A stretch of 64,000 bases of DNA from an uncultured Candidatus Saccharibacteria bacterium (lineage in GTDB: Bacteria; Patescibacteriota; CAZHWT01): the NCBI GenBank assembly GCA_964554805.1, contig CAZKPX010000002.1, positions 49,889 to 113,888 on the forward strand, written 5' to 3'. Each line of letters starts with the position of its first letter. Positions within the stretch are counted from its first letter, which is position 1. Below the pieces are notes generated by a model, which made no database searches, had not been told where the DNA came from, and saw nothing but the letters and a program-made list of their open reading frames with translations. Both the position numbers and the translations under genes were made by a program. This document shows, one piece after another, positions 12,817 through 53,624 of the stretch.

Positions 12817-12957
12817 AGACGATACTTCTCGATTATAGAGCTATAACAATATTATAGGTTTGATTATACGGCACCATGTCAATTATGTAGGTTGCGGTTG
12901 ATGGTAGAACTTAGGCGTCAGCGGTTGTGTTTTGGATTGTGGTAGAATGTAGGTATT

Positions 12958-13070
12958 AATTCATCAAGAGTGATGGCTAGAGTTTCGGCTCAGTGATCCA
13001 TCCAGCAACCGATTGTTTCAATGAACAATACGGTGCTTCAACCGACCCTTTGGGGACTGATGTGAGCTAT
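12958..13070 (+). promoter_or_regulatory. SAM-I (S-box)-like riboswitch in the metK leader, followed by a hairpin that sequesters the Shine-Dalgarno
   Basis: Conserved SAM-I blocks are present in order: ATCAAGAG (12963-12970), a P2 helix gatgg/ccatc, AGCAACC (13004-13010), GGTGCT (13032-13037) and a closing GATGTGAG (13059-13066). Downstream, acctcc-aag-gggcatatatgcc-taaa-ggaggt (13087-13118) pairs an anti-SD with the AGGAGG that precedes ATG 13126. Confidence 0.55.
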
Positions 13071-13125
13071 TTTAGCTAAACAGACTAACCTCCAAGGGGC
13101 ATATATGCCTAAAGGAGGTATTTTT

Positions 13126-14250
13126 ATGTCCAAGTTTTCCGCAAAGGAAACAGTATTTACATCAGAGTCAGTATGCGCTGGGCATCCGGACAAAATAGCT
13201 GATCAGATTAGTGATGCTATTTTGGATCAAATTCTGATTCAAGATAGTCAGGCTCGAGTGGCAGTAGAAACATTGGTTGCCAAACAGCGCGTGGTGTTGG
13301 CTGGAGAGATATCGACCACGGCTCAGGTTGATTATCGTGAGGTGGCGCGATCTGTAATTGCAGAGCTTGGCTACACTAATCCTGCTTTTGGTTTTGATGG
13401 CGATGCCACAATTGCTAGCTATATTCACCAACAATCCCCTGATATTGCGGTAGGCGTTGATCGAGATGGTGCCGGCGATCAAGGGATGATGTTTGGCTAT
13501 GCTACAAGTGAAAACGGGGCATATTTGCCTTGGCCGATTTGGCTAGCTCATCAGCTGAGCCGAGCCATTGATCAAGCAAGAATTAGTGGAGCTGTCCCCT
13601 ATCTTCGTCCTGATGGTAAGACTCAAGTCGGCGTGAGATATGTAGATGGCAAGGCTGTCGGTATTGATTCGGTAATTATGGCGGTGCCGCATGCCGAACA
13701 TGTTTCACAGCAGCAGCTGCAGTCTGATTTGGAAAAGGTTGTGGTGGGGCCGATATTGCAAGCTAACGGATTCGATCGAGCAGATAAAATAGTCGTAAAT
13801 GGGACTGGAGTGTGGCATATTGGCGGCCCGTCTTCTGATGTAGGGCTGACTGGTCGAAAAATTGTGGTTGATGGGTATGGAGGGATGGCGCGGGTGGGTG
13901 GTGGCTGTTTCAGCGGCAAAGATCCAAGCAAAGTCGATCGATCCGGAGCATACGCTGCTCGATACTTGGCTAAAAATATTGTGGCTGCCGGGTTGGCTGA
14001 CCAAGCTGAGGTCCGATTGGCTTATGTTATTGGCCAATCTCAGCCGTTAATGCAAGAGGTTGAAACTTTTGGAACCGCCAAAAAGAATGATAAAACGATT
14101 GCCGATTATACTGCTGGCTTGCTGGATACATCGGTGAGAGGAATCATTGAGGGCTTGGCATTGCAGCAACCGACCTACAAAGCTACCGCAAGTTACGGAC
14201 ACTTTGGTCGGGAAGAGTTTAGTTGGGAGCGGATTGTATCTAGAATATAA
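13126..14250 (+). CDS. metK: S-adenosylmethionine synthetase (methionine adenosyltransferase)
   Basis: FTSESVCAGHPDKIADQISDAILD, GGGCFSGKDPSKVDRSGAYAARY and other MetK signature blocks. Start taken at the Met after the AAGGAGG Shine-Dalgarno (the track lists 13105). Confidence 0.9.
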   Translation: MSKFSAKETVFTSESVCAGHPDKIADQISDAILDQILIQDSQARVAVETLVAKQRVVLAGEISTTAQVDYREVARSVIAELGYTNPAFGFDGDATIASYIHQQSPDIAVGVDRDGAGDQGMMFGYATSENGAYLPWPIWLAHQLSRAIDQARISGAVPYLRPDGKTQVGVRYVDGKAVGIDSVIMAVPHAEHVSQQQLQSDLEKVVVGPILQANGFDRADKIVVNGTGVWHIGGPSSDVGLTGRKIVVDGYGGMARVGGGCFSGKDPSKVDRSGAYAARYLAKNIVAAGLADQAEVRLAYVIGQSQPLMQEVETFGTAKKNDKTIADYTAGLLDTSVRGIIEGLALQQPTYKATASYGHFGREEFSWERIVSRI

Positions 14251-36248: not shown

Positions 36249-36322
36249 TTGGCTGATAGTGAAATGGCATCACGACAGGTTTTGGTCCTGTTATTCTAGG
36301 TTCGAATCCTGGTCGGCCAGCC
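36249..36322 (+). tRNA. tRNA-Gln (anticodon UUG)
   Basis: Acceptor TGGCTGA/TCGGCCA with the U1-A72 pair typical of bacterial tRNA-Gln. D-stem gtga/tcac. Anticodon stem acagg/cctgt with loop ttTTGgt. T-arm ctagg-ttcgaat-cctgg. Discriminator G, encoded CCA. Confidence 0.8.
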
Positions 36323-36381
36323 AAAAGAAAGCGCCTCAGCGAAAGCTGGGGCTTTTTCTTTGGTTGTTCGACATTGGATTT
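36317..36381 (+). repeat. Direct repeat copy 1 (tRNA-Gln 3' end plus terminator plus 30 nt); about 90% identical to 40116..40181
   Basis: cagccaaaagaaagcgcctcagcgaaagctggggctttttctttggttgttcgacattggattt aligns with 40116-40181 (3 mismatches and 1 indel). Confidence 0.6.
36332..36360 (+). terminator. Terminator hairpin after tRNA-Gln
   Basis: gcctcagc-GAAA-gctggggc, then TTTTTCTTT. Confidence 0.6.
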
Positions 36382-40115: not shown

Positions 40116-40181
40116 CAGCCAAAAGAAAGCGCCTCAGCGAAAGCTGGGGGCTTTTCCTTTTTGTTGTTCGACCTTGGATTT
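40116..40181 (+). repeat. Direct repeat copy 2 of the tRNA-Gln 3' flank/terminator segment
   Basis: See 36317..36381. Includes the same terminator hairpin (gcctcagc-gaaa-gctggggg). Confidence 0.6.
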
Positions 40182-40190
40182 TGGGTGCAG

Positions 40191-40755
40191 TCAACTAAAG
40201 CGGAACAACGTTGCGCGCAGATAGGCTTGAGGGCTTCTAAATACGTGTGCTTGGTTACACCGGGCCATCCATTCATTAAGGAATACCTGCAGTCTGGCCG
40301 TAGTCATCCCTACATGAGAGAGGATGCGCCGTGCACGTCGCTTCATTCGACTCCACAGATTCTCAATACGATTGGTGCCGGTAAAGTGTCCTTTAGAATG
40401 GTTCCAGATCTCCCGACCATAGCCCATCCATTCAATGCCTGCATAATAGCCTGCTGTGTCAGTAACGACCAAGGTACTTGGGGTGACATGCCTCTCCAGA
40501 AAACCTTGAACCAGATCTGCATCTGGTGCTGAAGGCAATATCTCCACTTTTATCCGACCACTACCTTGCTCAATGGCGCCAATAACAATTGCTTGTCTGC
40601 CGTAGCGTTCTTTGCCAAACCATGACTCATCCAGCTCCACCACCCCATCTAGCTGGTCACGGTCAGGCTCTTGAGGTAGGTGCTCCCTAAAGCGCGTATA
40701 CCAGCGGTTAACCGTTAGTAACCCCGGGGGTTGCTTTCTAGCTGAACCTCTGAGT
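40191..40755 (-). mobile_element. IS1595-family (ISXO2-like) transposase remnant, N-terminally truncated (pseudogene)
   Basis: VELDESWFGKERYGRQAIVIGAIEQG...TDTAGYY...HS.GHFTGTNRIENLWSRMKRR matches the DDE_Tnp_IS1595 domain (VEVDETY.GGK...). The reading frame is open upstream to a stop at ~40755 and encodes only a partial HTH (NRWYTRFREHL). No zinc-ribbon N-terminus and no ATG start. Confidence 0.65.
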
Positions 40756-40922: not shown

Positions 40923-40988
40923 TTAGCACTGGCCAACCTTTCCAGGCCATTTATCTCAGATAGCCGCGTTAGCACTTTATGGAAACTT
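40923..40988 (+). repeat. Composite ~65-bp intergenic element, copy A: two TTAGCACT(C/T)T half-sites flanking a TATCTCAGATA core, second half-site extended as TTAGCACTTTATGGAAA
   Basis: Read directly. Member of a 5-copy family (40.9, 42.2, 46.7, 47.7 and 52.7 kb), all in the same orientation. Confidence 0.55.
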
Positions 40989-41193
40989 TAGCTTTTCTAC
41001 CTAGCGATAAAACGCTTAGATGAACACTATAATAATTTAGGTCTATACAAAATATGGGCTACGGTGATTGATGAACCGTTATTTAATACGGCCAGAGTTT
41101 TGAGTTTGAAGATGACCTTTGAAATATTGACATACTCTGATTTTTCTGGTATGTAGAATGTATTGACCCACCACTAGTCAGGAGAAGGATGAG

Positions 41194-41385
41194 ATGTCAC
41201 CTGCGGACACGGTTATGGGTATTCCGGCGATCTTTATCCCATTCATCACTGGTCTGATTACTTGGATCCTTATAACGGTCTTATTTACCAAGGATGGTGG
41301 CGATATCGGCGATGCATTCGCGGCTGCCTGGGCGCCTGCCATGATTGTGGCTTTTATAACGATTTACTTCTTGGCAAAAGCCTAG
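41194..41385 (+). CDS. Small 2-TM membrane protein
   Basis: 63 aa with two hydrophobic helices, followed by a terminator. Confidence 0.4.
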   Translation: MSPADTVMGIPAIFIPFITGLITWILITVLFTKDGGDIGDAFAAAWAPAMIVAFITIYFLAKA

Positions 41386-42227: not shown

Positions 42228-42294
42228 TTAGCACTCTCCCCTGTTCTTAAGGTGATTATCAGAGATAAGTTGGTTAGCACTCCATGGAAATTTT
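42228..42294 (+). repeat. Composite intergenic element, copy B (ATTAGCACTCTCCCC...TTATCAGAGATAA...TTAGCACTCCATGGAAATTTTG)
   Basis: Same architecture as copy A. Lies upstream of the 42375 gene. Confidence 0.55.
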
Positions 42295-42374
42295 GGTTTT
42301 AATGCAGATAGCTAACTTGTTCTAGGTTGAACATCTAATTCGCACTTTTATTTGATTGTGCAAAGTAGTGTCAG

Positions 42375-43631: not shown

Positions 43632-44273
43632 ATGACTGATGAATTAAAAGAAGTTTTGATTAGCATTGCCACGGAGCGCATACCGAACGACGACCCTTCG
43701 CATGATATTGAACACACGCTTCGCGTTTTGGCAAATGCGTTGCGGATTGCGGATGAGGAGCAAGCTGATATTGATGTAATTATTCCAGCAGCCTTGTTTC
43801 ACGATATTATTACTTACCCCAAGAATGATCCGAGGTCGCTGAATGCTCAGGAAGAAAGTGCGCAGATGGCTCACAGTATTTTGACAAACTTGCCGGAGTA
43901 TCCGGTAGAAAAAATACCAGCTGTGATGGAGGCTATTCTGTTGTGCTCTTTTACCAAAGGGGTTGTGCCGGAACTGCTTGAGGCAAAGATTTTACAGGAT
44001 GCTGATGGACTAGAGGCTACCGGAGCCATTGCAGTTATGCGAACCTATGCATCGACCGGACAAATGCAGCGACCTTTTTATCATCCGACTGATCCGTTTG
44101 GTGTTAATAGACAAACAGATAGTAAGGCCTATGCCCTTGATTTGTTCTTTGATCGATTATTGAAGGTGGAGGGTAGAATGCATACGCAATCTGCTAAGCA
44201 CATAGCTCAGCGCCGAACAGTCTTTTTGTATGAATTCCTAGAAGAATTTCGGTTGGAGCTTGAAGGCAAGTAG
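43632..44273 (+). CDS. HD-domain metal-dependent phosphohydrolase
   Basis: His...HD...D metal-ligand pattern: HDIEHTLRV, ALFHDII and LQDADGLEA. Confidence 0.6.
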   Translation: MTDELKEVLISIATERIPNDDPSHDIEHTLRVLANALRIADEEQADIDVIIPAALFHDIITYPKNDPRSLNAQEESAQMAHSILTNLPEYPVEKIPAVMEAILLCSFTKGVVPELLEAKILQDADGLEATGAIAVMRTYASTGQMQRPFYHPTDPFGVNRQTDSKAYALDLFFDRLLKVEGRMHTQSAKHIAQRRTVFLYEFLEEFRLELEGK

Positions 44274-44308
44274 GTTTCTTAATATACTGGCATGTTACTA
44301 TTTAAGCT

Positions 44309-44827
44309 ATGAATAATCCATATGATTTTCAAAATGTGGTGGCGGCTAAGTTGTTGATTAAGAAGGGTGATCAGATATTACTGTTGCGTGAACCGTTGAC
44401 CAATGAGTGGATGCCGGGGAGGTTGGGATTGCCTGGAGGGAAGCCGGTGCTTCATGAAAGTTTGTCTGAGGCATTGCAGCGAAAGATAAAGACTGAAGTC
44501 GGCATCGCTATTGATATTAAGGGCTTGGTTAAGGTCATTGATATTATTATGCCTGAGAAAACTGTCTATCATTTTGTTATTGCGGCTGAGTATGTTGCGG
44601 GTGATATTGATGTGGAAGCGATTGAAGCTGATGATATGCGCTGGTTTACGATCGACGAAGTCAGTAAGCTGTTAAAAAATGATTTTACTGAGTACTACAA
44701 CGACGAAGTAATTAAAGATTATTTAGCAGGAATGCTGAACGCAATCCCTATGAGTGTTTTTGTTGAGCAAGATAATAGAACAGATGAAATAATGGATTGG
44801 ATGGTGAAGGGTCAAAGCATCCGATAA
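44309..44827 (+). CDS. NUDIX hydrolase (divergent Nudix box)
   Basis: GGKPVLHESLSEALQRKIKTEVGI fits GX5EX7REUXEEXGU, with K and T at two of the usual Glu positions. Confidence 0.55.
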   Translation: MNNPYDFQNVVAAKLLIKKGDQILLLREPLTNEWMPGRLGLPGGKPVLHESLSEALQRKIKTEVGIAIDIKGLVKVIDIIMPEKTVYHFVIAAEYVAGDIDVEAIEADDMRWFTIDEVSKLLKNDFTEYYNDEVIKDYLAGMLNAIPMSVFVEQDNRTDEIMDWMVKGQSIR

Positions 44828-44898
44828 AGCGGGGATTAATACAAGTTTGCGGTATTGGTTTATATCAACTAAGGCAAGCTGTCTGATATACTAGTTTA

Positions 44899-45357
44899 GT
44901 GCATGCAGGTCAAGATTATATTGGTGTCATAACTCCTTTCTTTTGTCACAATGGTCGTGGTCAGTTTTTGTTTTATCGTCGAGGTAAAGAGGCTAAGGAT
45001 GAGTTGGGAGTGTGGGATTGTAGCGGCGGTTCTATGCAGTTTGGTGAGCAGCCAGTTGAGACGGTGTTGCGAAAACTTAAATCTCAGTACGGTGTCGAGC
45101 CGGTGAATTTTGAAGAATTGCCCGCGCATTCTGTTTTGGTAGATATAGATGGAATTCCAAATCATTGGCTGGCTATTCCATTCATCGTGCAAGTCGATCC
45201 CGAGCAGGTACGAATTGGTGAGCCACATAAAATGGATGAGATAGGATGGTTTGATTTGGACGCATTGCCTGAGCCAATCCATCCTGGAGCAGCTGATATT
45301 TTGCGAACATACAGTGAGCGATTTTCTGCTCATACTAAAAAACAAACAGCGAATTGA
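44899..45357 (+). CDS. NUDIX-fold protein (degenerate Nudix box)
   Basis: GGSMQFGEQPVETVLRKLKSQYGV. The fold pattern is retained but the catalytic Glu residues are partly replaced, so it may be non-catalytic or act on unusual substrates. Confidence 0.45.
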   Translation: MHAGQDYIGVITPFFCHNGRGQFLFYRRGKEAKDELGVWDCSGGSMQFGEQPVETVLRKLKSQYGVEPVNFEELPAHSVLVDIDGIPNHWLAIPFIVQVDPEQVRIGEPHKMDEIGWFDLDALPEPIHPGAADILRTYSERFSAHTKKQTAN

Positions 45358-45458
45358 GCTGTACCGTGGTTAAATATTTTACTAGTATAGGGAATGCTAG
45401 GCAGTGTGTAGCTAGATGGGCATTCGTGCTCATTGCTGAGCAGAATGCCCATCTAGGC

Positions 45459-45959
45459 TTAGATCCAAGCTTGATCCAGGAGGTAATCTGGGAGCTTGAA
45501 TTCTGAATGGTTCCAAGCTACCTGCGGGCTGGTCCATTCTAGGATGCTTGCCCCGGTCGGGTCATAATTCTTAAGGCCTGGAGTGCTCCACCAGTAGGGG
45601 CTCTTTTGCGCGAGAACCGCAAAAGTAATGGCAAAAACAGAACTTGGCTTCTCACTATTCCCCGGATTGATTCCTGGGTCAACATAGAGTTCCAAAGTTG
45701 CTGTAACAAAGGTCGCTACCTCGGATTCAAACACAAAATAGTCCCTGGTTTCATCTCCCCACTTGGGATTGAAGTGAATATACACCTTTGCAATGCCGGT
45801 CAACTTGTATTGACTGCGCAGCTGATTGATTCGTCGCTCAACCTTTTGGCTGGCTAATGCCGTCAGGTCATTCGGCTTGGTGTTCACTTTGTCTATGCTC
45901 CTTAGCTCGGTGCGACTGCGCAACTGCGCAGTAATCTTCCCCGAATGGAAGATGATCAC
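45459..45959 (-). CDS. Hypothetical protein
   Basis: 166 aa, no recognisable motif. It is the only minus-strand gene inside the NUDIX cluster. Confidence 0.35.
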   Translation of the reverse strand: MIIFHSGKITAQLRSRTELRSIDKVNTKPNDLTALASQKVERRINQLRSQYKLTGIAKVYIHFNPKWGDETRDYFVFESEVATFVTATLELYVDPGINPGNSEKPSSVFAITFAVLAQKSPYWWSTPGLKNYDPTGASILEWTSPQVAWNHSEFKLPDYLLDQAWI

Positions 45960-46006
45960 TCGACATTATCACTAGAAATGGATACTGTCAATAAATACTA
46001 CAGCAG

Positions 46007-46642
46007 TTGAAGCCTGCTCTGCGGTACTTCTGTTATAATCATCTTATGAAAATAAACTTTGAGTTGCCTAGTGATGGGTTGATGCATCGATATTGTTTTA
46101 GTTGTTTGAAGGAAGGGGCCAAGCAGGTAAAGATTGATGGGATAACTCAGTATCATTGCGATGCATGTGGGCAGGATAATGGACGAGCGATTTACTTTGA
46201 TAAGCATAAGGTATGGCTCGATGATCAGCGAGAACTGTGGCATGAGTCGGCTGGGGTGTTTGTTCGTCGAGCAGATGGGAAGTTTTTGTTTTTTCAAAGA
46301 ACCGAGTACCCATTATATTTAACCGTGCCATCTGGTCATGTAGATCGAGGCGAAGATCCATCAGTGGCAGCTGCTCGTGAGTTGGTCGAAGAAACTGGCA
46401 TCATTGGTAGTCCTGTATTGATTGGAACTTCTGATATTGTTGGAGATTCATGTAGTGCCGGTGCGGATGCTCATAAGTGGCATGTTTTCTTATTGAAGCT
46501 TGATGGTCCGAATAGGCAAGTAGAAATACTCGAAGAGGGTGAAAAGGCGCTATGGTTGACATTGGCAGAAGCAAAAGGTCAAGGCATGGTGTTTGTTGTA
46601 GAAAAGGCTGCGGATCTGTTTGGGAAACAGCTTGAATCTTAG
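46007..46642 (+). CDS. NUDIX hydrolase with an N-terminal zinc ribbon (NudC/NADH-pyrophosphatase-like architecture)
   Basis: CFSCLKEG...HCDACGQ zinc ribbon, then the canonical Nudix box GHVDRGEDPSVAAARELVEETGI. Alternative start at ATG 46036. Confidence 0.6.
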   Translation: MKPALRYFCYNHLMKINFELPSDGLMHRYCFSCLKEGAKQVKIDGITQYHCDACGQDNGRAIYFDKHKVWLDDQRELWHESAGVFVRRADGKFLFFQRTEYPLYLTVPSGHVDRGEDPSVAAARELVEETGIIGSPVLIGTSDIVGDSCSAGADAHKWHVFLLKLDGPNRQVEILEEGEKALWLTLAEAKGQGMVFVVEKAADLFGKQLES

Positions 46643-46664
46643 GCACTTTCCATATCAAAATTGA

Positions 46665-46730
46665 TTAGCACTCTACCCTGTTTGAGATCTTGCTATCTCA
46701 GATAAATGATTTAGCACTCTATGGAAAGTT
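46665..46730 (+). repeat. Composite intergenic element, copy C (GATTAGCACTCTACCC...TATCTCAGATAA...TTAGCACTCTATGGAAAGTTG)
   Basis: Between two NUDIX genes. A sigma70-like promoter (ttgtct...tatataat) follows immediately. Confidence 0.55.
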
Positions 46731-46789
46731 GTCTTGTATTCAAAGTTATCCCATGGTGTATATAATGAGGCTTATTAGGGAGTTTTTGA

Positions 46790-47323
46790 ATGCCACATAT
46801 ACATATTGAACCTGGTCAACATGATCATACGGTGAGCGCTTATATTGTTCGAGTTGATGGTGATGAACCTCGACTGCTTCTGCACCGGCATAAGAAGCTG
46901 GGGGTGTATATGCAGATTGGTGGGCATATTGAGCTGGATGAAACACCTTGGCAAGCTATCTCGCATGAACTGCGTGAGGAGACTGGCTATGAGTTGGATC
47001 AGCTGGAAATATTGCAGCCCAAAGAGCGACTGTTAAAACTGTCTGGTGTGGACTCTCATCCGTTGCCGTTTAATCACAATACTCATGCGGTGGGAGGTAG
47101 CGATCATTTTCACACTGATATCACTTATGCATTTGTGGCGACCGAAGATTCACGGATTGATCTGGAAGAGGGCGAGTCAAGCGATATTAAATTATTTACC
47201 AAGGCTGAGTTGCAGGCTCTTTCTGCAGAAGAAATTTATGAAAATGTTCGCGAGCTGGGCGTGTTTGTACTAGAGGTGATTTTGGATGCCTGGAATAGGA
47301 TTCCAGCCACCAATCTTCGGTAG
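46790..47323 (+). CDS. NUDIX hydrolase
   Basis: Canonical Nudix box GGHIELDETPWQAISHELREETGYE. Confidence 0.65.
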   Translation: MPHIHIEPGQHDHTVSAYIVRVDGDEPRLLLHRHKKLGVYMQIGGHIELDETPWQAISHELREETGYELDQLEILQPKERLLKLSGVDSHPLPFNHNTHAVGGSDHFHTDITYAFVATEDSRIDLEEGESSDIKLFTKAELQALSAEEIYENVRELGVFVLEVILDAWNRIPATNLR

Positions 47324-47530: not shown

Positions 47531-47710
47531 ATGTTTTCGCGCAAATTTCTTATTTACCTTGGTGTGATTGTTGGGTCGGGATTGGGTAGTCTGGTGCCAA
47601 AGTTGTGGGGGGCGGGGTTGTTATCCAGTTGGGGGATCCTGTTTAGTAGTGTCGGTGCTTTTGTGGGATTTTATGTGGGATATAAACTGGGAGAAATGAT
47701 AGAAGGTTAG
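47531..47710 (+). CDS. Small hydrophobic protein (59 aa, 2 TM), below the ORF-track size cut-off
   Basis: ATG 47531 ... TAG 47708-47710 encodes MFSRKFLIYLGVIVGSGLGSLVPKLWGAGLLSSWGILFSSVGAFVGFYVGYKLGEMIEG. Gly-zipper-like helices. Repeat copy D begins 4 nt after the stop. Confidence 0.35.
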   Translation: MFSRKFLIYLGVIVGSGLGSLVPKLWGAGLLSSWGILFSSVGAFVGFYVGYKLGEMIEG

Positions 47711-47713
47711 TCG

Positions 47714-47781
47714 TTAGTACTCTGCCCCACTTTGGCTTTTGTATATCTTAGACAAGAGGGTTAGCAGTCTATGGAAATTTT
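47714..47781 (+). repeat. Composite intergenic element, copy D (GTTAGTACTCTGCCCC...TATATCTTAGACAA...TTAGCAGTCTATGGAAATTTTG)
   Basis: Most diverged copy. Lies about 330 bp from the 3' end of the giant minus-strand gene. Confidence 0.5.
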
Positions 47782-48115
47782 GTAATTTCTACGACAGGCA
47801 AGCTAGGCGTGTTGGGATGCACGCCCGGGAGGGGTGGGAATTTTGATTGGCACGGAAAAAGGTGTGGACTTTGCTGAAAAGGTTAACTTTTTGCCGCTAG
47901 GCATGGCCACTTCTCCTGAATTGTGAAAGGGCTGACAATCTGACAATTTGCCGTTAGGCTGATGTATTATAGGTTATTCTGAAGTAACTTTCAGCAGAAA
48001 CTACAACGCTCTATAACATCTCACATTGCAGGTGGTACTATTCGTATATTTCAAATTTGAAATTTGGGGTACTGGAAGATTAGCTCGTAATTACGATAAT
48101 GAAAACCTATCAGTA

Positions 48116-51100
48116 TTAATGATCTATGTAGCGTCTGCTAAACTGCAAATCTACAGTTCTTTGGTATGAATCTGAGCTTTTTTGAGGACTATCCTTGGCT
48201 TGGACAGCCAGCGCCGTGAAATAACGCAAGAAATTAAGTTCGAAATCGTAGCTTCCAGATAGATGATGCATTGCTTCGTGGATATAAACTTCAAGTAGTT
48301 GCTTCGGATTATTAATCAGTGATTGATTTACTTCTATTTGTGCAGCATCATTTTCGATTCCGAGATAAAGACCTGCAAATGGGTTTAAACTACTGCCGAC
48401 AGAAATATCCTGTTCTGTCATTTGCAATAATTGGTCGATGCGCTGTTCAAGAACATGATTTTCTGCCTGCATATTTCTCGAACGGTACTCGCTATCTACC
48501 TCTGAATCTTCATATTGTTCTCTATGCCAAGCGCGACCAAGATATTCTCTTTTGTCTGGATCTAGGAGCATATCCTTAAAGTAGTCGACTATGACTTGAT
48601 TGACTTGACGCGCATACTGCCCTACTTGATGCTTTTCCTCAGCGGTTAAGTCAATTTGAATTCCTCTAAGTTCTTGGCAGAAATCTTGTGTGGTATAGAC
48701 AAACTTTGATAGCTCTCTAGTTAAATCCTCTGGTAGCCTGATGGCGTTGGACCGTTCGAGGTGGACTTTGAGAGACTCTTCCATCTGAGCATTTTCGGAG
48801 CTAAGACTGGCAATTGATAATATTGCGTTTCTGCCGAAGACTTCATAGTACATTTGTCTCCACATCTCTTTATTGTTCTCTATTCCGGTTAATGAATTTA
48901 CGTTTTCATCTAACAGTTCATATTCGAGGTACTCAACTTGAGGATTGAGTTTTGCCTGAGTGAGAATATGCTTAACTACGGTGCGATCTATTGTTTGAGT
49001 GAGATAGTCTGATGCGACCAGATAGAACTCTGCGGGGTCGATAGCATTTCGTTCACGAGTGTTTATTGTGGATTTTTGCAAGTTGTAGCCCAACATTAAC
49101 GGTGAGGATCTATGCAAACTATCTTTGCCATTAGGTACAAGAAGGTTTTTTTCGAATATTTGGCCCGGTCTATCTAATAGTACTGATACTGCTAAGCTAG
49201 AATGGATCTCTGTAGCTGGCGATATGATGTATTTATCAAGCCCTGCATACCCGGCAGCATCGGTAATCCTGGGGTCTAAAACATCTAGCCACTGCTTCCA
49301 GATTTGCAGTTTTTGAGATAATTGATGAGAATTGCTCTGCTCTGTGATGTTTGGTGACAAATATTGAAGCTGGCTTCGCTGTTCTGGATTTAAAGATTGA
49401 AGCTGTGTGTCGAATAATGAAAATGTTGTTTGAGAGCCAGTTCTTGGCTCATCTTGCCATTGCATATTGTAGCCTAGCATGTCAAACTCCTGCAGCTGTT
49501 GGGTTTCATGATTCATGGCTGATTGCTTGTGACTAGTTGGCTTGGCAGACCAATTACGGGAGCGTAGCTCTAGGTGTATGCCCTGCAGAGTAGCCGAAGC
49601 GGCGAGCATTTTTAAGCCTTCGCCGAATTTGCCTGCGTCGGCATCTGATTTAGTTGTTCTACCGAGATCCGTTAGATAGGGCGTGGTGTAGCCATCTCCC
49701 TGATCCAGTATTGATACACTTATGATGTTCCAGCTTTTGTCTAAGCTTGCAAGTTGTTGACTATCAACTTCCTGAATATGTCCTTCACCATTTGTAACTT
49801 TATATTGTATGGTTGGAAATTGGCCATGGTTGGCATCGATATGATTTTGGATGGCATCTAGCATGATTCTTCTTGGGTCTGCCCAGACCTTGCCCCCATA
49901 ATCCAGGGTGTTATTGGCTGCAATGTACTCTTCGCCTTGATTAATCTCGGTTAATTGATTTGAAAACGGTTCAGATTCATCGCTTAGCTTGAGAGCTTCG
50001 AGCCTTCCATTTAGCATTAGTAGTTCCCCGACAATCTCGAGGCCTACATCGTCATTTACTTGGCCTGAATCTATGACTGGATTACCGTTATGCACGGAGA
50101 CGGTATAGTCCTGATCTGCTAGTGGGGTAAACGAATTGCCCGAAGCCGTTCTGGTAATGGCTACTTTGTGTTGGGATTCAGAAGTGGTTATGGAGAAAAT
50201 AGACGTATGGTTGACTTGCACTGGCAGAGGAACAAAGTATAGAGGCAGACGAGCTTCATTGGGATCTATATATGGAATCGGCTCGCCTGGCGTGAGCAGT
50301 ATTGGTAGCGATTCTTGGTGGGTTGACGAGGCGTCTACAAATTCTAATTGTTGGTTTAACGACAGAAGTTTGCCGGCGAAGTAAAATGGCGCGGTGGGAA
50401 ACTGTTTTCCTATTGCTAAATCAAGTGCCTGTGGGTTGATATTGGCGAAAAATTGTCGTGCATGCATCAGTCTGTCGCTGAACAGTTTAATATTTTCGAT
50501 TGAATTTAGAGTTTTTGATGCTTGAACTAATTCGATAACCGTGACAACTAAATTGTCATGTTGCTCTAGTTCATTTTTATAGCCTATTTGAGGCGACTCA
50601 CCCGCTTCTCTTGAAGCAATTTGGTCTGACAGATTGATTTCTAGTAACTCTGGGTGACGCTCGATTAGTGCCCGTGCAACAAACGTTCCTAGCCTAAGCT
50701 GTAGCTTGTCAGAAAATGACACGTCCATAGATTCCACTTGATTGGCTAACAGAACCACGTCCATAGCTCTGGCATATGAGCTGGTAGGTTGACTATTGAC
50801 ATCAACCATAACTGCATGTTCGTTCATATTGTATGAAAATGGATAATCATCAACAAACATCTCGCTTTGGGTATTGTTAGGTGACTGCAAAAAAATAGCT
50901 TGATCGAGAACATCTGTCACGTCATATGATGTATATTTTTGAGCTATTAGTCGTATCTCAGTTTCTAGGTTTGGGTCAATTGGTTGATAGGTGCCAGTCT
51001 CTCCATTTAGTAATTCGAGAACTTGATCAATGTGGGCAGGTTCGTTGTATATAGACTTGAGTAGTTCTAGTAGGTTGTGTATGTTTGGCCGAATATCAAT

Positions 51101-52549
51101 TAGCTGATAGCCGCGCTGCTCCATTATTCGTCTTTCTTCGAATGTAGCACTGATAGGACAAAATAGTGTCTTGCCTGGAATGTAATTATAAGTGGAGGTA
51201 ATGGCTTGCTGCCACAAATCTTTTTGCGACTGACTGAAGTTTTGCCCATCCGGAAGATTGTTGGCTTCGATTGTGTATGATAGTGGGCTATCTGTATTGA
51301 AGGAGCTGACCAAAAGCTGTAGTGAGGCTAGGTCGTCAATGTGCTCGATAGCCTCATTGACTACTTGCTCTAAGGCAGAATATTGCACGGTGCTGCGATC
51401 GCGACCAGATATGGCCCATTTATTCTTGATGTTATAACTCCAAAGTTGATCGGTTCGGTTTTCTTCGACAAGCAGGCCTTTAACATAGACTCGTCCCGGT
51501 GGTATATTCTCTTCTATTAGGCGACAGCTGGTATCGAGCTTTTCTAATGATAATGAATGGTTGTACTCTAGTACGTACTTTCCTAGTCCTTGATCGTTTT
51601 GCCTGAGATCTAGAATTTGTCTGACATTATGCCATTCTTCCTCTGACATGGTAGCCGAGCTTAAGTCAACTAATGTTCGTGAGCCAAGCATCTTGGAATC
51701 TGTGCCATGCTTTGGTCTCCGAGTGGTGCTTTTGCCTTCTAAGGTTAATAAACCGTTATTTTGTTGTGGACCAAGCCACCAGGATTCGTCGGAGTTTTCG
51801 GATGCGATGCGGATATCGGCTCCGGTGCGATTGAGTTGAGCAACGCTCATTTTTAAACCTTCGCCCAATCCACCGCGTTTGCCAGGATCCTCTTTTTTAG
51901 TAGAGGCTCCAATCATGCTAAGTAATTTGTGATCGAAGCCTGCTCCTTGATCTGCTACTAAATAGCCAACAACTTGCCACTCCTCTGGCTCCAAAACAAC
52001 TCTGTCATACTCTACAAATTTTGATTGACTGCCATTGCGTAATTTTAGCTTTATCGAGGGGGGCTTATAGGCAGCATCAGCTAATTTGGCACGTAGATCC
52101 TCTATGTAGTCGCGATTACTGACTCTTTGCTGGTATATCTTGTCAGGCCAGTCTACGATGCGAGCTAGAGTGTCAAAAGTTCGAAGCTGTTCTTCTGGGT
52201 CTGAAGATAGTTGCAGTTTGGCAAGCTGTTCAAGGATGATGTCGTGCGCTGGATGGCTAGGGTCGAATTCAGTGGCGTCGATAAGCTCTAAGCGGGCCAT
52301 TCCATAGGAGGTGGTATTAGCATCGAGGTGATTCTGTAAGATATCTACGATAGACTGAGACGGTCGCCACGTTTTCTCTCCATAATTTAGATCAATGCCG
52401 GTGGAATGTTCAATAGAAGATATCGGTGAACGCGGTTGATAAATAGGTAAGCTAGAAGAGGTTTGTGGTGGTGTTCTATCCGAATCTTTTGGATGATTAT
52501 TTTCTGTTTGAGTTGAATCTGAGTAACCTGAAGAGTGTTCTGGTGCCAT
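48116..52549 (-). CDS. 1477-aa protein with two tandem GHKL (Bergerat-fold, Hsp90/MutL/MORC/sacsin-type) ATPase modules and a C-terminal HExxH motif; function unknown
   Basis: Each module has a motif I (N-box), a G1 box (motif II, DxGxG) and a G2 box (motif III, GxxGxG). Module 1: motif I VDILQNHLDAN (aa 66-78, nt 52322-52348), G1 DQGAG (aa 200-204), G2 GGLGEGLKM (aa 226-234, nt 51848-51874). Module 2: motif I DAIQNHIDAN (aa 898-907), G1 DQGDG (aa 949-953), G2 GKFGEGLKM (aa 973-981, nt 49607-49633; checked by back-translation). C-terminal HEAMHH at aa 1424-1429 (nt 48266-48280). Ser/Thr/Pro-rich disordered N-terminus. Uninterrupted 4.4-kb ORF. Confidence 0.6.
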   Translation of the reverse strand: MAPEHSSGYSDSTQTENNHPKDSDRTPPQTSSSLPIYQPRSPISSIEHSTGIDLNYGEKTWRPSQSIVDILQNHLDANTTSYGMARLELIDATEFDPSHPAHDIILEQLAKLQLSSDPEEQLRTFDTLARIVDWPDKIYQQRVSNRDYIEDLRAKLADAAYKPPSIKLKLRNGSQSKFVEYDRVVLEPEEWQVVGYLVADQGAGFDHKLLSMIGASTKKEDPGKRGGLGEGLKMSVAQLNRTGADIRIASENSDESWWLGPQQNNGLLTLEGKSTTRRPKHGTDSKMLGSRTLVDLSSATMSEEEWHNVRQILDLRQNDQGLGKYVLEYNHSLSLEKLDTSCRLIEENIPPGRVYVKGLLVEENRTDQLWSYNIKNKWAISGRDRSTVQYSALEQVVNEAIEHIDDLASLQLLVSSFNTDSPLSYTIEANNLPDGQNFSQSQKDLWQQAITSTYNYIPGKTLFCPISATFEERRIMEQRGYQLIDIRPNIHNLLELLKSIYNEPAHIDQVLELLNGETGTYQPIDPNLETEIRLIAQKYTSYDVTDVLDQAIFLQSPNNTQSEMFVDDYPFSYNMNEHAVMVDVNSQPTSSYARAMDVVLLANQVESMDVSFSDKLQLRLGTFVARALIERHPELLEINLSDQIASREAGESPQIGYKNELEQHDNLVVTVIELVQASKTLNSIENIKLFSDRLMHARQFFANINPQALDLAIGKQFPTAPFYFAGKLLSLNQQLEFVDASSTHQESLPILLTPGEPIPYIDPNEARLPLYFVPLPVQVNHTSIFSITTSESQHKVAITRTASGNSFTPLADQDYTVSVHNGNPVIDSGQVNDDVGLEIVGELLMLNGRLEALKLSDESEPFSNQLTEINQGEEYIAANNTLDYGGKVWADPRRIMLDAIQNHIDANHGQFPTIQYKVTNGEGHIQEVDSQQLASLDKSWNIISVSILDQGDGYTTPYLTDLGRTTKSDADAGKFGEGLKMLAASATLQGIHLELRSRNWSAKPTSHKQSAMNHETQQLQEFDMLGYNMQWQDEPRTGSQTTFSLFDTQLQSLNPEQRSQLQYLSPNITEQSNSHQLSQKLQIWKQWLDVLDPRITDAAGYAGLDKYIISPATEIHSSLAVSVLLDRPGQIFEKNLLVPNGKDSLHRSSPLMLGYNLQKSTINTRERNAIDPAEFYLVASDYLTQTIDRTVVKHILTQAKLNPQVEYLEYELLDENVNSLTGIENNKEMWRQMYYEVFGRNAILSIASLSSENAQMEESLKVHLERSNAIRLPEDLTRELSKFVYTTQDFCQELRGIQIDLTAEEKHQVGQYARQVNQVIVDYFKDMLLDPDKREYLGRAWHREQYEDSEVDSEYRSRNMQAENHVLEQRIDQLLQMTEQDISVGSSLNPFAGLYLGIENDAAQIEVNQSLINNPKQLLEVYIHEAMHHLSGSYDFELNFLRYFTALAVQAKDSPQKSSDSYQRTVDLQFSRRYIDH

Positions 52550-52685
52550 GGTAGCTTAAGTATAGTACGTATGATTTATGCCTGTCTATTGCCGAAGCTG
52601 TGTTGGCTGCATTTCTAAATTTAAGGCGTAGCAACGTCTAAGGTATGGCGGGCTGTCACAATTGACTATTCTAGCGTTTCTATGG

Positions 52686-52752
52686 TTTGCACTCTCCATA
52701 CTCTACGGGCTTCTTATCAGAGATACTACTATTGGCACTCTATGGAAAATTG
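52686..52752 (+). repeat. Composite intergenic element, copy E (TTTGCACTCTCCATAC...TTATCAGAGATAC...TTGGCACTCTATGGAAAATTGG), preceded by an extra partial half-site TAGCGTTTCTATGG (52669-52682)
   Basis: Sits in the divergent region between the giant gene start (52549, minus) and the NlpC/P60-like gene (52824, plus). Confidence 0.55.
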
Positions 52753-52823
52753 GCCGTACAATAGTATGTTGAATAGGGATGTGTTTATAGCAGGGTCGCA
52801 TCAAACTTATCTGCTATACTGAC

Positions 52824-53624
52824 ATGGATATGACACCTGAAATAAAACATGCAAACAATCTGGCCTGGAAGAGAGTGCATGATTATCAGCGACTGAAAAT
52901 TGGTGGCCAAGAAGTGGGCTGTCCGTATGCAATAAATTTGCTGTCCCGCAATGTAATCTCATTAATGACGCAGGCGGGTACTGAAGAATCGTTGATTTCC
53001 TCAGTTACTGAACTGTATAAGCAGCGGCAGGTTCCGTATGGTTGGTATCGGGGGAAAGGGACTCCGGAAGAAATTGTGGCGGCGGCGGAAGCGCTGGCTG
53101 AGGTTCATGGCTATAATCTGGCCAACTCGACGGCGGAGGGGATAGTGGAATTTATGAAGCTGTTTGGGTTGGGGGTTGATTGTTCCGGATTTGTCTATCA
53201 TGTTCTGGATTTCGCTTGGTCAGCGGTGGTGGGGCACGATCGGTTTGTGGCTGGTTTTGCCTGGCCCAGTGATAATCAGAAGGGTGTCAATTATGCTGGG
53301 ACTCAATTTTTAGCTGCTAATTCAAGCCTGGTTGAACCAAATGATGTGCAGCCACTTGATCTGGTTTGCATCCATCAAGACCAAGTTTATTCTCATATTG
53401 GGTTAATTTTAAAAGATGATCAGGGGTGGCAGATAGTTCAATCTAATATCAGCAATTTGCCGACTGGGCTGAATGTCTCAGGATTGCAGATTAAGGATGG
53501 TGCTGTAAATTTTGAGTACAAACCAGCTATTGGCAGGGCATGGAATGATTATAAAGATTCTACTATAGAGTTTAGAAGATTGAGTCTGGTCAATGAGCTC
53601 AAGCCTCAATCTGATGGCAAGTGA
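52824..53624 (+). CDS. NlpC/P60-family (papain-fold) cysteine peptidase/amidase-like protein, no signal peptide
   Basis: Catalytic Cys block GVDCSGFVYHVLDF and His block DLVCIH...YSHIGLIL match the NlpC/P60 motifs (DCSGFV ... DLVFF...H.GIY). The N-terminus is hydrophilic, so the protein is presumably cytoplasmic. Confidence 0.5.
   Translation: MDMTPEIKHANNLAWKRVHDYQRLKIGGQEVGCPYAINLLSRNVISLMTQAGTEESLISSVTELYKQRQVPYGWYRGKGTPEEIVAAAEALAEVHGYNLANSTAEGIVEFMKLFGLGVDCSGFVYHVLDFAWSAVVGHDRFVAGFAWPSDNQKGVNYAGTQFLAANSSLVEPNDVQPLDLVCIHQDQVYSHIGLILKDDQGWQIVQSNISNLPTGLNVSGLQIKDGAVNFEYKPAIGRAWNDYKDSTIEFRRLSLVNELKPQSDGK

Follow-up and report, generated by a model that had tools for sequence, protein, structure and literature searches.

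A duplicated GHKL-transducer-zincin protein from a Saccharibacteria genome and its uncharacterised family, whose named members are mostly CPR bacteria and DPANN archaea

The locus

The window, that is, the whole stretch of DNA analysed, comprises 64,000 nucleotides from an uncultured Candidatus Saccharibacteria bacterium, a member of the Patescibacteria (CPR). On its minus strand an open reading frame at 48116..52549, described in an earlier note and here found to be complete with an ATG start, encodes a protein of 1477 amino acids. The protein has neither a signal peptide nor a transmembrane segment; its pI is 4.9 and its net charge -79, and each domain is net negative. A sigma-70-like promoter match (TAGACA-18-TATACT; 52559..52588, minus strand) ends 9 nt before the ATG; the spacing of this consensus-only match suggests a near-leaderless mRNA.

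Both flanking genes lie on the opposite strand, and the gene is therefore monocistronic by orientation, as previously proposed. Copies of a repeated element flank it at 47714-47782 and 52686-52753. The earlier note took them to bound the gene, and they are indeed present on both sides. However, all five copies are plus-oriented and four of them sit 58–200 nt upstream of plus-strand open reading frames, an arrangement that suits promoter or operator elements serving adjacent genes better than limits of this one. The divergent neighbour (52824-53624) is in place, but its NlpC/P60-like match is sub-threshold (E 0.006). The accessory surroundings described earlier hold for a NUDIX/HD cluster (43632-47323) and an IS1595-like remnant (40191-40643), whereas the tRNA genes (36016 and 36250) are 12 kb away. 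Local GC around the gene is slightly lower.

Two GHKL modules in one chain

All protein features below are encoded on the minus strand, and every motif was re-translated from window coordinates. Structures of the two halves were modelled separately with AF2 (pLDDT 79.8 and 75.6). A variable, Ser/Pro/Thr-rich tail (aa 1-44; 52418..52549), of which the N-half model takes in only aa 40-44, shows no conservation in the family. Module 1 (aa 45-460; 51170..52417) and module 2 (aa 866-1250; 48800..49954) each consist of a GHKL ATPase domain, a transducer-like domain and a helical tail. A beta-rich linker region (aa 721-865; 49955..50389), found in the close subfamily only and modelled with low confidence, precedes module 2, and long helices (aa 1251-1390; 48380..48799) join module 2 to a C-terminal zincin.

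In module 1, motif I (the N box) reads DILQNHLDA at aa 69-77 (52319..52345), one residue downstream of the position first given, with Asp69 in the place of the catalytic Glu and Asn73 as the presumed Mg ligand. The G1 box, DQGAG (aa 200-204; 51938..51952), and the G2 box or ATP lid, RGGLGEGLKM (aa 225-234; 51848..51877), lie where they had been placed; all ten positions of the latter are invariant or nearly so. The region around them (aa 194-253) gives a weak match to the ATP lid of histidine kinases. A predicted helical bundle of ~80 residues (aa 78-160; 52070..52318) separates motif I from G1; it is specific to module 1, appears as a gap when the two module profiles are aligned, and is short or absent in the relatives P0019 and P0020. 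The transducer-like domain carries an invariant SYN..K.AI.GRDR motif, SYNIKNKWAISGRDR (aa 371-385; 51395..51439), a candidate gamma-phosphate sensor. Module 2 has the equivalent set: DAIQNHIDA (aa 898-906; 49832..49858), DQGDG (aa 949-953; 49691..49705), GKFGEGLKM (aa 973-981; 49607..49633, reproducing the earlier reading) and GYNLQKSTINTRER (aa 1154-1167; 49049..49090).

In an alignment of 19 sequences with a mean column identity of 37%, none of the motif residues varies, and the motifs are widely kept in the larger family: of 189 full-length members, 145 have two D..QNH boxes and 172 have two D.G.G[FY] boxes. The GHKL and HExxH motifs are thus not coincidental, and together with the predicted folds they bear out the proposal of two genuine Bergerat-fold modules. 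The nucleotide-binding motifs are complete in both, making each a putative ATP-binding site. Both modules have Asp at the position where a catalytic Glu is usual, as had been noticed, and so do nearly all members, the Glu form (E..QNH) being found in 2 of the 189; the modules could therefore be ATP binders only.

The zincin and an internal duplication

The C-terminal domain (aa 1391-1460; 48170..48379) is predicted to be a mini-zincin with a three-stranded sheet, an HExxH helix and a second helix. Its metal-binding motif, HEAMHHLSGSYD (aa 1424-1435; 48245..48280), has the form HExxHxxxGxxD, in which H1424, E1425, H1428 and D1435 are invariant. The HExxH, already recognised as zincin-like, is present in 180 of the 189 members. 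The motif resembles that defined for Asp-zincins (PMC3890501) with one extra residue, and zinc binding is putative. The same longer spacing sets the domain apart from the mini-zincins compared, namely the minigluzincins projannalysin, proabylysin and selecase, the M48 cores of BepA and HtpX, and the Asp-zincin Acel_2062 family. Members of the Acel_2062 type are mostly stand-alone proteins of ~110 aa (PMC3890501), in contrast to the fusion with ATPase modules seen here. No Pfam peptidase family matches the protein.

Module 2 is a paralogue of module 1 (profile comparison, E 8.5e-44), and the two whole units are collinear across 484 aligned columns. At about aa 550-640 (50630..50902), three strands and two helices like those of the C-terminal zincin form a probable degenerate copy in which none of the three metal ligands is kept; the N-terminal half, although it lacks HExxH, still matches minigluzincins in structure searches. 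The duplication therefore covers the whole GHKL-transducer-helical-zincin unit, the first zincin having no metal ligands.

The family and its relatives

A profile search gathers 1140 clusters at 50% identity. Most of the 189 full-length members examined keep two GHKL modules plus HExxH, and this layout is seen again in length classes of ~1000, ~1450 and ~1900 aa. Tandem GHKL modules, described at first as rare, are thus the norm within this family. We count the recurrence in three length classes and the frequency of HExxH as suggestive of selection for the combined layout. Three members with an apparent single module plus zincin (P0151, P0155 and P0156) may be fragments; if they are complete, the ancestral mode may have been intermolecular dimerisation. 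Named members are mostly CPR bacteria and DPANN archaea, and the family is a large, uncharacterised one, characteristic mostly of these ultrasmall organisms. The earlier note missed both this character and the degenerate zincin that reveals the duplication.

The 1477-aa protein has no sequence match in PADLOC, Pfam or PDB and none to MORC, MutL, HtpG, histidine kinase or sacsin families, in agreement with the view that it belongs to no described family. At the sequence level it is not a member of the dimerising GHKL ATPases (GyrB/ParE/topoisomerase II ATPase, MutL, MORC, Hsp90/TRAP1/GRP94). It differs from them by the Asp in a family-specific D..QNH..DA box, by two modules on one chain instead of a homodimer, by the fused zincin, and by the lack of a Toprim domain, MutL C-terminal domain, CW/coiled-coil or Hsp90 C-terminal domain. 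Sacsin, which carries three Hsp90-like SRR repeats, likewise has several GHKL-type modules in a large single chain and a similar motif I (QN..DA). FtsH and Lon also unite ATPase and protease, of the metallo- or serine type, in a single chain; this is an analogy only, as the ATPase fold here is GHKL and not AAA+, and the hexameric ring signature and membrane anchor are absent.

Phages encode relatives of the GHKL-transducer module. The phage family phrog_6077 (~370-440 aa, function undescribed) matches it with E 1.3e-19 for the 1477-aa protein and 2e-30 for P0047. The G2 box and the SYN...RDR motif recur in a protein of Vibrio phage K412, but its motif I, read in this single phage homologue, has Glu instead of Asp. 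Foldseek matches include uncharacterised phage proteins (E 2e-15 to 1e-8) and RIIA (7e-5). The phrog_6077 and RIIA-type relatives have one module only, and no zincin is seen in them.

Proposed mechanism and alternatives

The gene product is probably a cytoplasmic, self-contained enzyme with putative activity, built of the duplicated GHKL-transducer-helical-mini-zincin unit. Self-containment is supported by the lack of any conserved neighbour gene across 10 homologue contexts. GHKL ATPases work via ATP-driven N-terminal dimerisation. Here, ATP binding would close the two modules of one chain on each other as an intramolecular clamp, with each transducer-like domain sensing the gamma-phosphate through its invariant RDR/RER loop. 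Asp in place of Glu would slow hydrolysis and give a long-lived closed state; for the E42D mutant of GyrB, Jackson and Maxwell (1993) reportedly found that ATPase activity was lowered but not lost. Closure would then position or unmask the sole active metallopeptidase at the C-terminus, or hand a captured polypeptide over to it. We tentatively favour such an ATP-gated protease or chaperone-protease, in which two-module closure gates an Asp-zincin peptidase, while giving it somewhat less than an even chance. Its target is more likely to be protein than DNA, judging from the acidic domains and the lack of any detected DNA-binding domain.

The protein could instead be a single-gene anti-phage or conflict effector, in which the GHKL pair serves as a timer or as the sensor of an invader-derived cue and the freed zincin cuts proteins of the host or the phage, in the manner of abortive infection. 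Such a role is rather unlikely. It would fit the sporadic spread and fast divergence (identity of about 30% within the close subfamily; 5.8 billion clusters yielded only 25 close homologues), the lower GC, IS1595 remnant and NUDIX/HD cluster of the window, and the single-module phage homologues, with RIIA among the structural matches, a protein of phage counter-defence that is described as poorly understood (PMC7824862). Some homologues also adjoin suggestive genes: P0002 lies beside E2-CBASS/ThiF, Fic/RhuM and CdiA_C genes, P0019 beside an integrase, and P0180 near a GmrSD_N gene. However, no PADLOC model matches the protein or any of six relatives, IMG/VR yielded no relative when scanned with the family pattern, and most neighbours in the 10 contexts are housekeeping or cell-envelope genes (rpsO-pnp-nusA-infB, lepA, pyrF, SRP54/prefoldin/eIF6, glycosyltransferase clusters). 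The assignment to defence made in the earlier note is thus not established, and a defence role is unproven.

The envelope genes raise the prospect of an episymbiosis effector or envelope factor, delivered to or acting at the CPR/DPANN host interface, where it might, for instance, process surface or host proteins. Named members span two domains of life with one lifestyle, few hypothetical families are reported as common to DPANN and bacteria (PMC8204110), and envelope neighbours are frequent (NlpC/P60-like, SLT, PMT/GT4 clusters, LytR, GT2/GH26, prepilin peptidase or T4SS pilin). Yet such genes are plentiful in these small genomes, where adjacency may be chance, and no secretion-system gene is consistently linked. 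The missing signal peptide and transmembrane segment, and two ATPase modules that imply cytoplasmic action, also make this role improbable.

Quite improbable as well is a DNA-directed clamp of the MORC, MutL or topoisomerase VI-B kind that would load on DNA and be coupled to a SprT/Wss1-like protease that removes DNA-bound or cross-linked proteins. P0023 and P0043 exceed the Pfam HATPase_c_3 threshold, and P0002 has a weak SprT-like match (E 0.0077). Against this, all domains are acidic, and no nucleic-acid-binding domain was detected, be it Toprim, HhH, CW, zinc finger or another. SprT/Wss1 proteases have His as their third metal ligand, whereas here it is Asp with Asp-zincin-like spacing, and the DNA- or ubiquitin/SUMO-binding elements of SprT/Spartan/Wss1 are lacking. 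In structure comparisons, Hsp90-family matches equal those of DNA enzymes and span the longest aligned lengths.

Finally, a non-catalytic scaffold or pseudoenzyme, with the Glu-to-Asp change and the mini-zincin as relics, is very unlikely. In its favour, Asp replaces the general-base Glu in both modules, one of two zincin copies is already degenerate, and some mini-zincins, e.g., minigluzincins, are zymogens or have no detectable activity (PMC3890501). Against it, the residues that bind Mg, adenine and phosphate do not vary at ~30% overall identity, nor does the H-E-H-D metal site, as is typical where ligand binding or catalysis has been retained, and the C-terminal zincin looks different from the N-terminal copy with its relaxed selection.

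What is new here is the duplication of the whole unit, the size and layout of the family, its CPR/DPANN membership and the single-module relatives in phages. For a GHKL-driven protease or chaperone-protease of this kind, candidate roles in such ultrasmall, episymbiotic cells would be control of the proteome or a part in conflicts with phages or with hosts.

Domain architecture and motif conservation

The minus-strand ORF at 48116–52549 encodes a 1477-aa protein in which two GHKL modules (module 1, aa 45–460; module 2, aa 866–1250) precede a C-terminal zincin. The motifs quoted in the earlier note were re-derived by translating the window coordinates, and all of them were recovered; only motif I of module 1 had been placed one residue off, at aa 68–76. 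In module 1, motif I reads DILQNHLDA (aa 69–77), motif II (G1) DQGAG (aa 200–204), and motif III (G2) RGGLGEGLKM (aa 225–234). The counterparts in module 2 are DAIQNHIDA (aa 898–906), DQGDG (aa 949–953), and GKFGEGLKM (aa 973–981), and the C-terminal zincin motif is HEAMHHLSGSYD (aa 1424–1435). Neither a signal peptide nor a hydrophobic segment was found in the protein.

A word-indexed search returned 25 homologs, mostly 1370–1575 aa long and ~30–41% identical to the protein, from which 19 sequences were drawn for a conservation alignment. In this alignment, no residue of either GHKL motif set varies. The invariant residues include the Mg-binding Asn of the N box (N73 and N902), the G1 residues D200/G202/G204 and D949/G951/G953, and the G2 residues G226–K233 and G973/G976–K980. 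The general-base Glu of motif I is replaced by Asp in both modules, and this Asp (D69, D898) is also invariant. A parallel motif follows each GHKL core and is conserved in the same alignment: SYN..K.AI.GRDR at aa 371–385 and GYN...INTRERN at aa 1154–1168. The loops GRDR (aa 382–385) and TRER (aa 1164–1167) are candidate counterparts of the γ-phosphate Arg of the Hsp90 middle domain. At the C-terminus, the metal-site residues H1424, E1425, H1428, and D1435 do not vary; the HExxH is helix-borne and accompanied by a third metal ligand, as in zincins of clan MA of the Asp-zincin/mini-zincin type.

A motif census of 189 full-length family members extends this picture. Of these, 145 contain two D..QNH boxes, 172 contain two D.G.G[FY] boxes, and 180 retain HExxH, while E..QNH, the version with Glu, is found in only two. 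The longer pattern HE..H...G..D is present in 120 of the 182 members that make up the two main length classes. The combination of GHKL and zincin is strongly conserved.

Duplication and predicted structure

Profile–profile comparison matched aa 45–480 to aa 875–1260 with a probability of 100% (E 8.5e-44, 304 columns), and the two modules are therefore paralogs. Each spans ~380–410 aa, with the GHKL core followed by a second domain and then by a helical tail; an ~80-aa helical insertion in module 1 lies between motif I and G1. Structures were modeled as two overlapping halves from the family alignment (pLDDT 75.6 for aa 40–870 and 79.8 for aa 860–1477), and the models contain the GHKL α/β sandwich and a zincin fold. 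In structural comparison, the zincins that matched separately were BepA (score 8.2), projannalysin (6.8), Spartan SprT (6.6), Wss1 (6.3), and selecase (6.3). The score for sacsin SR1 was just 5.3.

The duplication probably reaches beyond the GHKL modules. In the models of both halves, ~aa 550–630 are predicted to form three strands followed by two helices, as in the C-terminal zincin. In a permissive profile alignment, aa 45–638 are collinear with aa 873–1460, and MDVVL-LANQ...FSDKLQ falls in register with YIHEAMHHLSG..DFELNF. The protein has two GHKL modules in which the nucleotide-binding site is intact, both with a transducer-like domain, together with one intact and one probably degenerate mini-zincin.

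Comparison with known families

GHKL ATPases include DNA clamps (topoisomerase II, MutL, MORC), chaperones (Hsp90), and kinases, and we know of none that is fused to a protease. By its motifs and predicted fold, the protein is assigned to the GHKL superfamily, the catalytic Glu excepted, and its C-terminal part, on the same kinds of evidence, to the zincin clan. Membership of any curated family was rejected, as the Pfam, NCBIfam, PADLOC, and PDB sequence searches gave no significant match. A Pfam scan of the protein found nothing significant, NCBIfam gave just a weak match to the histidine-kinase ATP-lid region (aa 194–253), and PADLOC-DB 2.0 matched no family, with any component model, for the protein and six relatives. 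Searches of PDB sequences with the single sequence or the family profile were also without a significant match. Weak HATPase_c matches were also seen.

The protein fell outside MORC, Hsp90/HtpG, MutL, sacsin, SprT/WLM, and all PADLOC systems. The MORC/HATPase_c_3 group combines an S5 fold with CW or coiled-coil modules, whereas the protein has neither a Pfam match nor a CW domain; HATPase_c_3 was reached by the distant relatives P0023 and P0043 alone, at 25.7–27.8 bits against a cut-off of 25. It likewise lacks the sequence family match and C-terminal dimerization domain of Hsp90/HtpG, as well as the repeat-region signature and the UBL, DnaJ, and HEPN domains of sacsin. SprT-like/WLM proteases use His as the third ligand, whereas the third ligand here is Asp and there is no Pfam match; the homolog P0002 scored 16.5 bits against SprT-like/WLM, for which the cut-off is 25.6. 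The Asp-zincin motif is defined as HEXXHXXGXXD (PMC3890501), and the motif of the present family, HExxHxxxGxxD, is one residue longer.

The sole curated relatives at the level of sequence appear to be phrog_6077 and, in precomputed records on homologs, MPN635_N (PF25856). The latter is recorded on many homologs, mostly as a weak or faint match, though without such a mark on the homolog P0003; the protein itself has no precomputed record of it, nor did it come up in the local Pfam scan. The domain is named after a functionally uncharacterized gene of Mycoplasma pneumoniae, mpn635, which is listed as non-essential in that organism (PMC9825166). In literature searches, we found no description of a GHKL–zincin fusion or of this family. 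The architecture is new and widespread, and it is assembled from known folds.

Phage relatives of the GHKL module

The profile phrog_6077 (PHROGs, function unknown) matched aa 200–492 of the protein at E 1.3e-19 over profile positions 50–310 of 366, and matched P0047, a compact family member of ~1000 aa, at E 2e-30. This homology is at the level of the module only, and the protein is not a phage protein. By tblastn, a 408-aa hypothetical protein was found in Vibrio phage K412 (L018 4809–6035, corresponding to OZ196335.1 62565–63791). It consists of a single GHKL–transducer module, shares the G2 box and an FSYNL...LDRDR motif, and sits among small early-type genes. Unlike the 1477-aa protein, with its Asp and its zincin, the phage protein carries Glu in motif I and lacks a zincin; it belongs with phrog_6077. 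Foldseek against BFVD matched uncharacterized phage proteins of 300–600 aa (E 2e-15 to 1e-8) and an RIIA protein (E 7e-5). RIIA-type GHKL proteins are poorly understood phage counter-defense factors (PMC7824862).

Family size, architecture and distribution

The 25 matches of the word-indexed search gave a misleading impression of rarity. An exhaustive HMM search, with a profile of aa 866–1460 against 1.84 billion cluster representatives, matched 1140 proteins at E≤1e-3, of which 382 remained at E≤1e-10 and 173 at E≤1e-30. When sub-profiles were mapped on 160 sequences, the order module–module–HExxH zincin recurred in three length classes: ~1300–1700 aa, to which the present protein belongs; ~1900–1950 aa, with a 500-aa N-terminal extension; and a compact class of 900–1200 aa, in which the two modules are adjacent. 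A few sequences with a single module and a zincin may be fragments. Scanning IMG/VR viral contigs with the family pattern found no relative, and the scan of metagenome contigs added only two short loci.

A 6439-aa giant (P0137/P0160), encoded on NCBI metagenome-assembled contigs of ~96–102 kb, has, embedded at ~aa 2440–3350, stretches of the module type together with one that resembles a zincin. This suggests that far larger polypeptides can incorporate the GHKL–zincin unit.

The closest homolog, at 41% identity, lies on a contig labeled Candidatus Saccharibacteria. The MetK encoded in the window is closest, at 61–66% identity, to proteins named Levyibacteriota, Daviesbacteria, Roizmanbacteria, and Patescibacteria, which places the window in a CPR bacterium. 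Named members of the compact class come from CPR bacteria (Patescibacteria, Pacebacteria, Parcubacteria) and DPANN archaea (Micrarchaeota, Anstonellaceae, Nanoarchaeota); two further named entries read only '[bacterium]' and, for a partial sequence, '[Proteobacteria bacterium]'. One homolog context contains archaeal SRP54, prefoldin, and eIF-6 genes. Three long-class MAG contigs are 'uncultured Gammaproteobacteria' by label alone. Castelle et al. detected few DPANN families of unknown function in bacteria (PMC8204110), and a hypothetical CPR/DPANN family of this size is notable for that reason.

Genomic context and the repeated element

By orientation, the large gene is monocistronic in the window. 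On one side, a 59-aa hydrophobic ORF and a NUDIX gene converge with it. On its other side, the divergent neighbor described in the earlier note as NlpC/P60-like is indeed divergent (52824–53624), with an NlpC/P60 match that is only sub-threshold. A promoter-like TAGACA-18-TATACT (within 52550–52600, minus strand) has its −10 hexamer ending just 9 nt before the ATG, and no Shine–Dalgarno sequence was found upstream of this ATG; the mRNA may thus be leaderless or nearly so. There was no conserved operon partner among 10 homolog contexts, and the large gene is self-contained.

The composite element that had been proposed to flank the gene is real, with five copies in the window, all on the plus strand (40923–40990, 42228–42295, 46665–46732, 47714–47782, and 52686–52753). 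The element is ~70–90 nt long, and its copies are all contained in 12 kb. Every copy is made up of a direct pair of TTAGCACTC boxes, 46–47 nt apart, that enclose the palindrome TATCnnAGATA. All but one of the copies are located 58–200 nt upstream of plus-strand ORFs (at 41194, 42402, 46790 [NUDIX], and 52824 [NlpC/P60-like]), and the element therefore resembles a shared promoter/operator of the neighboring island genes. The copy at 52686–52753, in the divergent intergenic region, could also affect the large gene. The TTAGCACTC box equals a half-site of the CIRCE consensus. A canonical heat-shock operator (CIRCE/HrcA) was rejected because the boxes in every one of the five copies are direct repeats and have no inverted partner.

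Several other features were noted. The 59-aa ORF at 47531–47710 (plus strand) is Gly-rich and strongly hydrophobic (MFSRKFLIYLGVIVGSGLGSLVPKLWGAGLL...), ends directly before the repeat copy at 47714, and is followed by a GC-rich hairpin at ~47806–47825. At 43632–47323, four NUDIX genes and a single HD-domain gene are tightly clustered, and an XRE-type HTH gene lies on the other strand; for a small genome, this concentration of nucleotide-hydrolase paralogs is unusual. A 44-nt terminator-like hairpin with a T-run occurs at 36318–36361, abutting a tRNA 3′ end (36250–36320), and with 93% identity at 40116–40159, just before an IS1595-like transposase remnant (40191–40643). Between the two copies, which may be the trace of an insertion beside the tRNA, lie a flavoprotein gene and an ABC-transporter/FtsX pair. 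A SAM-I/IV riboswitch at 12956–13093 (plus strand; 44.4 bits, gathering score 41.1) lies directly upstream of metK (methionine adenosyltransferase, 13105–14250). Outside the window, the contig carrying P0002 has E2-CBASS-like and ThiF (E1-like) genes with several unannotated ORFs (L003 2366–5661) 2–6 kb upstream of that homolog, and Fic/RhuM and CdiA_C toxin-type genes downstream; it looks like a conflict-gene neighborhood in a CPR genome.

Proposed mechanism and significance

We tentatively propose that the protein is an ATP-gated protease, a reading that is plausible if somewhat short of probable. By analogy with dimerizing GHKL ATPases, ATP binding would make module 1 close on module 2 of the same chain, and the invariant RDR/RER loops would act as γ-phosphate sensors. 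The Asp in place of Glu in motif I would slow hydrolysis; Jackson and Maxwell are said to have found in 1993 that GyrB E42D keeps reduced activity. Closure of the modules would then control the predicted activity of the C-terminal peptidase. More speculatively, the family may represent a novel class of ATP-dependent protease whose mini-zincin is gated by a pseudo-dimeric GHKL pair instead of an AAA+ ring, with a role in proteome control or host/phage conflict.

The alternatives differ chiefly in the biological role, or else assume another substrate. A defense or conflict effector is conceivable but unlikely: conflict genes (E2-CBASS/ThiF, Fic, CdiA_C, integrase, GmrSD_N) occur in some homolog contexts, and housekeeping loci (rpsO-pnp-nusA-infB, lepA, pyrF) in many. 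A factor in episymbiosis seems improbable, although cell-envelope genes (SLT, PMT/GT4 clusters, LytR, GT2/GH26, prepilin peptidase) are found in several contexts. Similarly doubtful, and ranked just behind it, is a DNA clamp carrying a SprT-like protease. The protein has a pI of 4.9, and a protein substrate is favored over DNA because every domain is acidic and there are no nucleic-acid-binding modules. Least likely of all is a pseudoenzyme.

The layout is conserved across >1000 sequence clusters, which points to a novel route for coupling proteolysis to ATP. Compact members of ~1000 aa are small enough for structural and biochemical study, so that the question can be put directly to the test. 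Among the named members, most belong to the CPR bacteria or the DPANN archaea, two huge and largely uncultured radiations that both live as episymbionts. Hypothetical families shared by the two are reported to be few (PMC8204110); the GHKL–zincin family may therefore be a marker of gene exchange between domains and could be relevant to the biology of CPR/DPANN symbionts.
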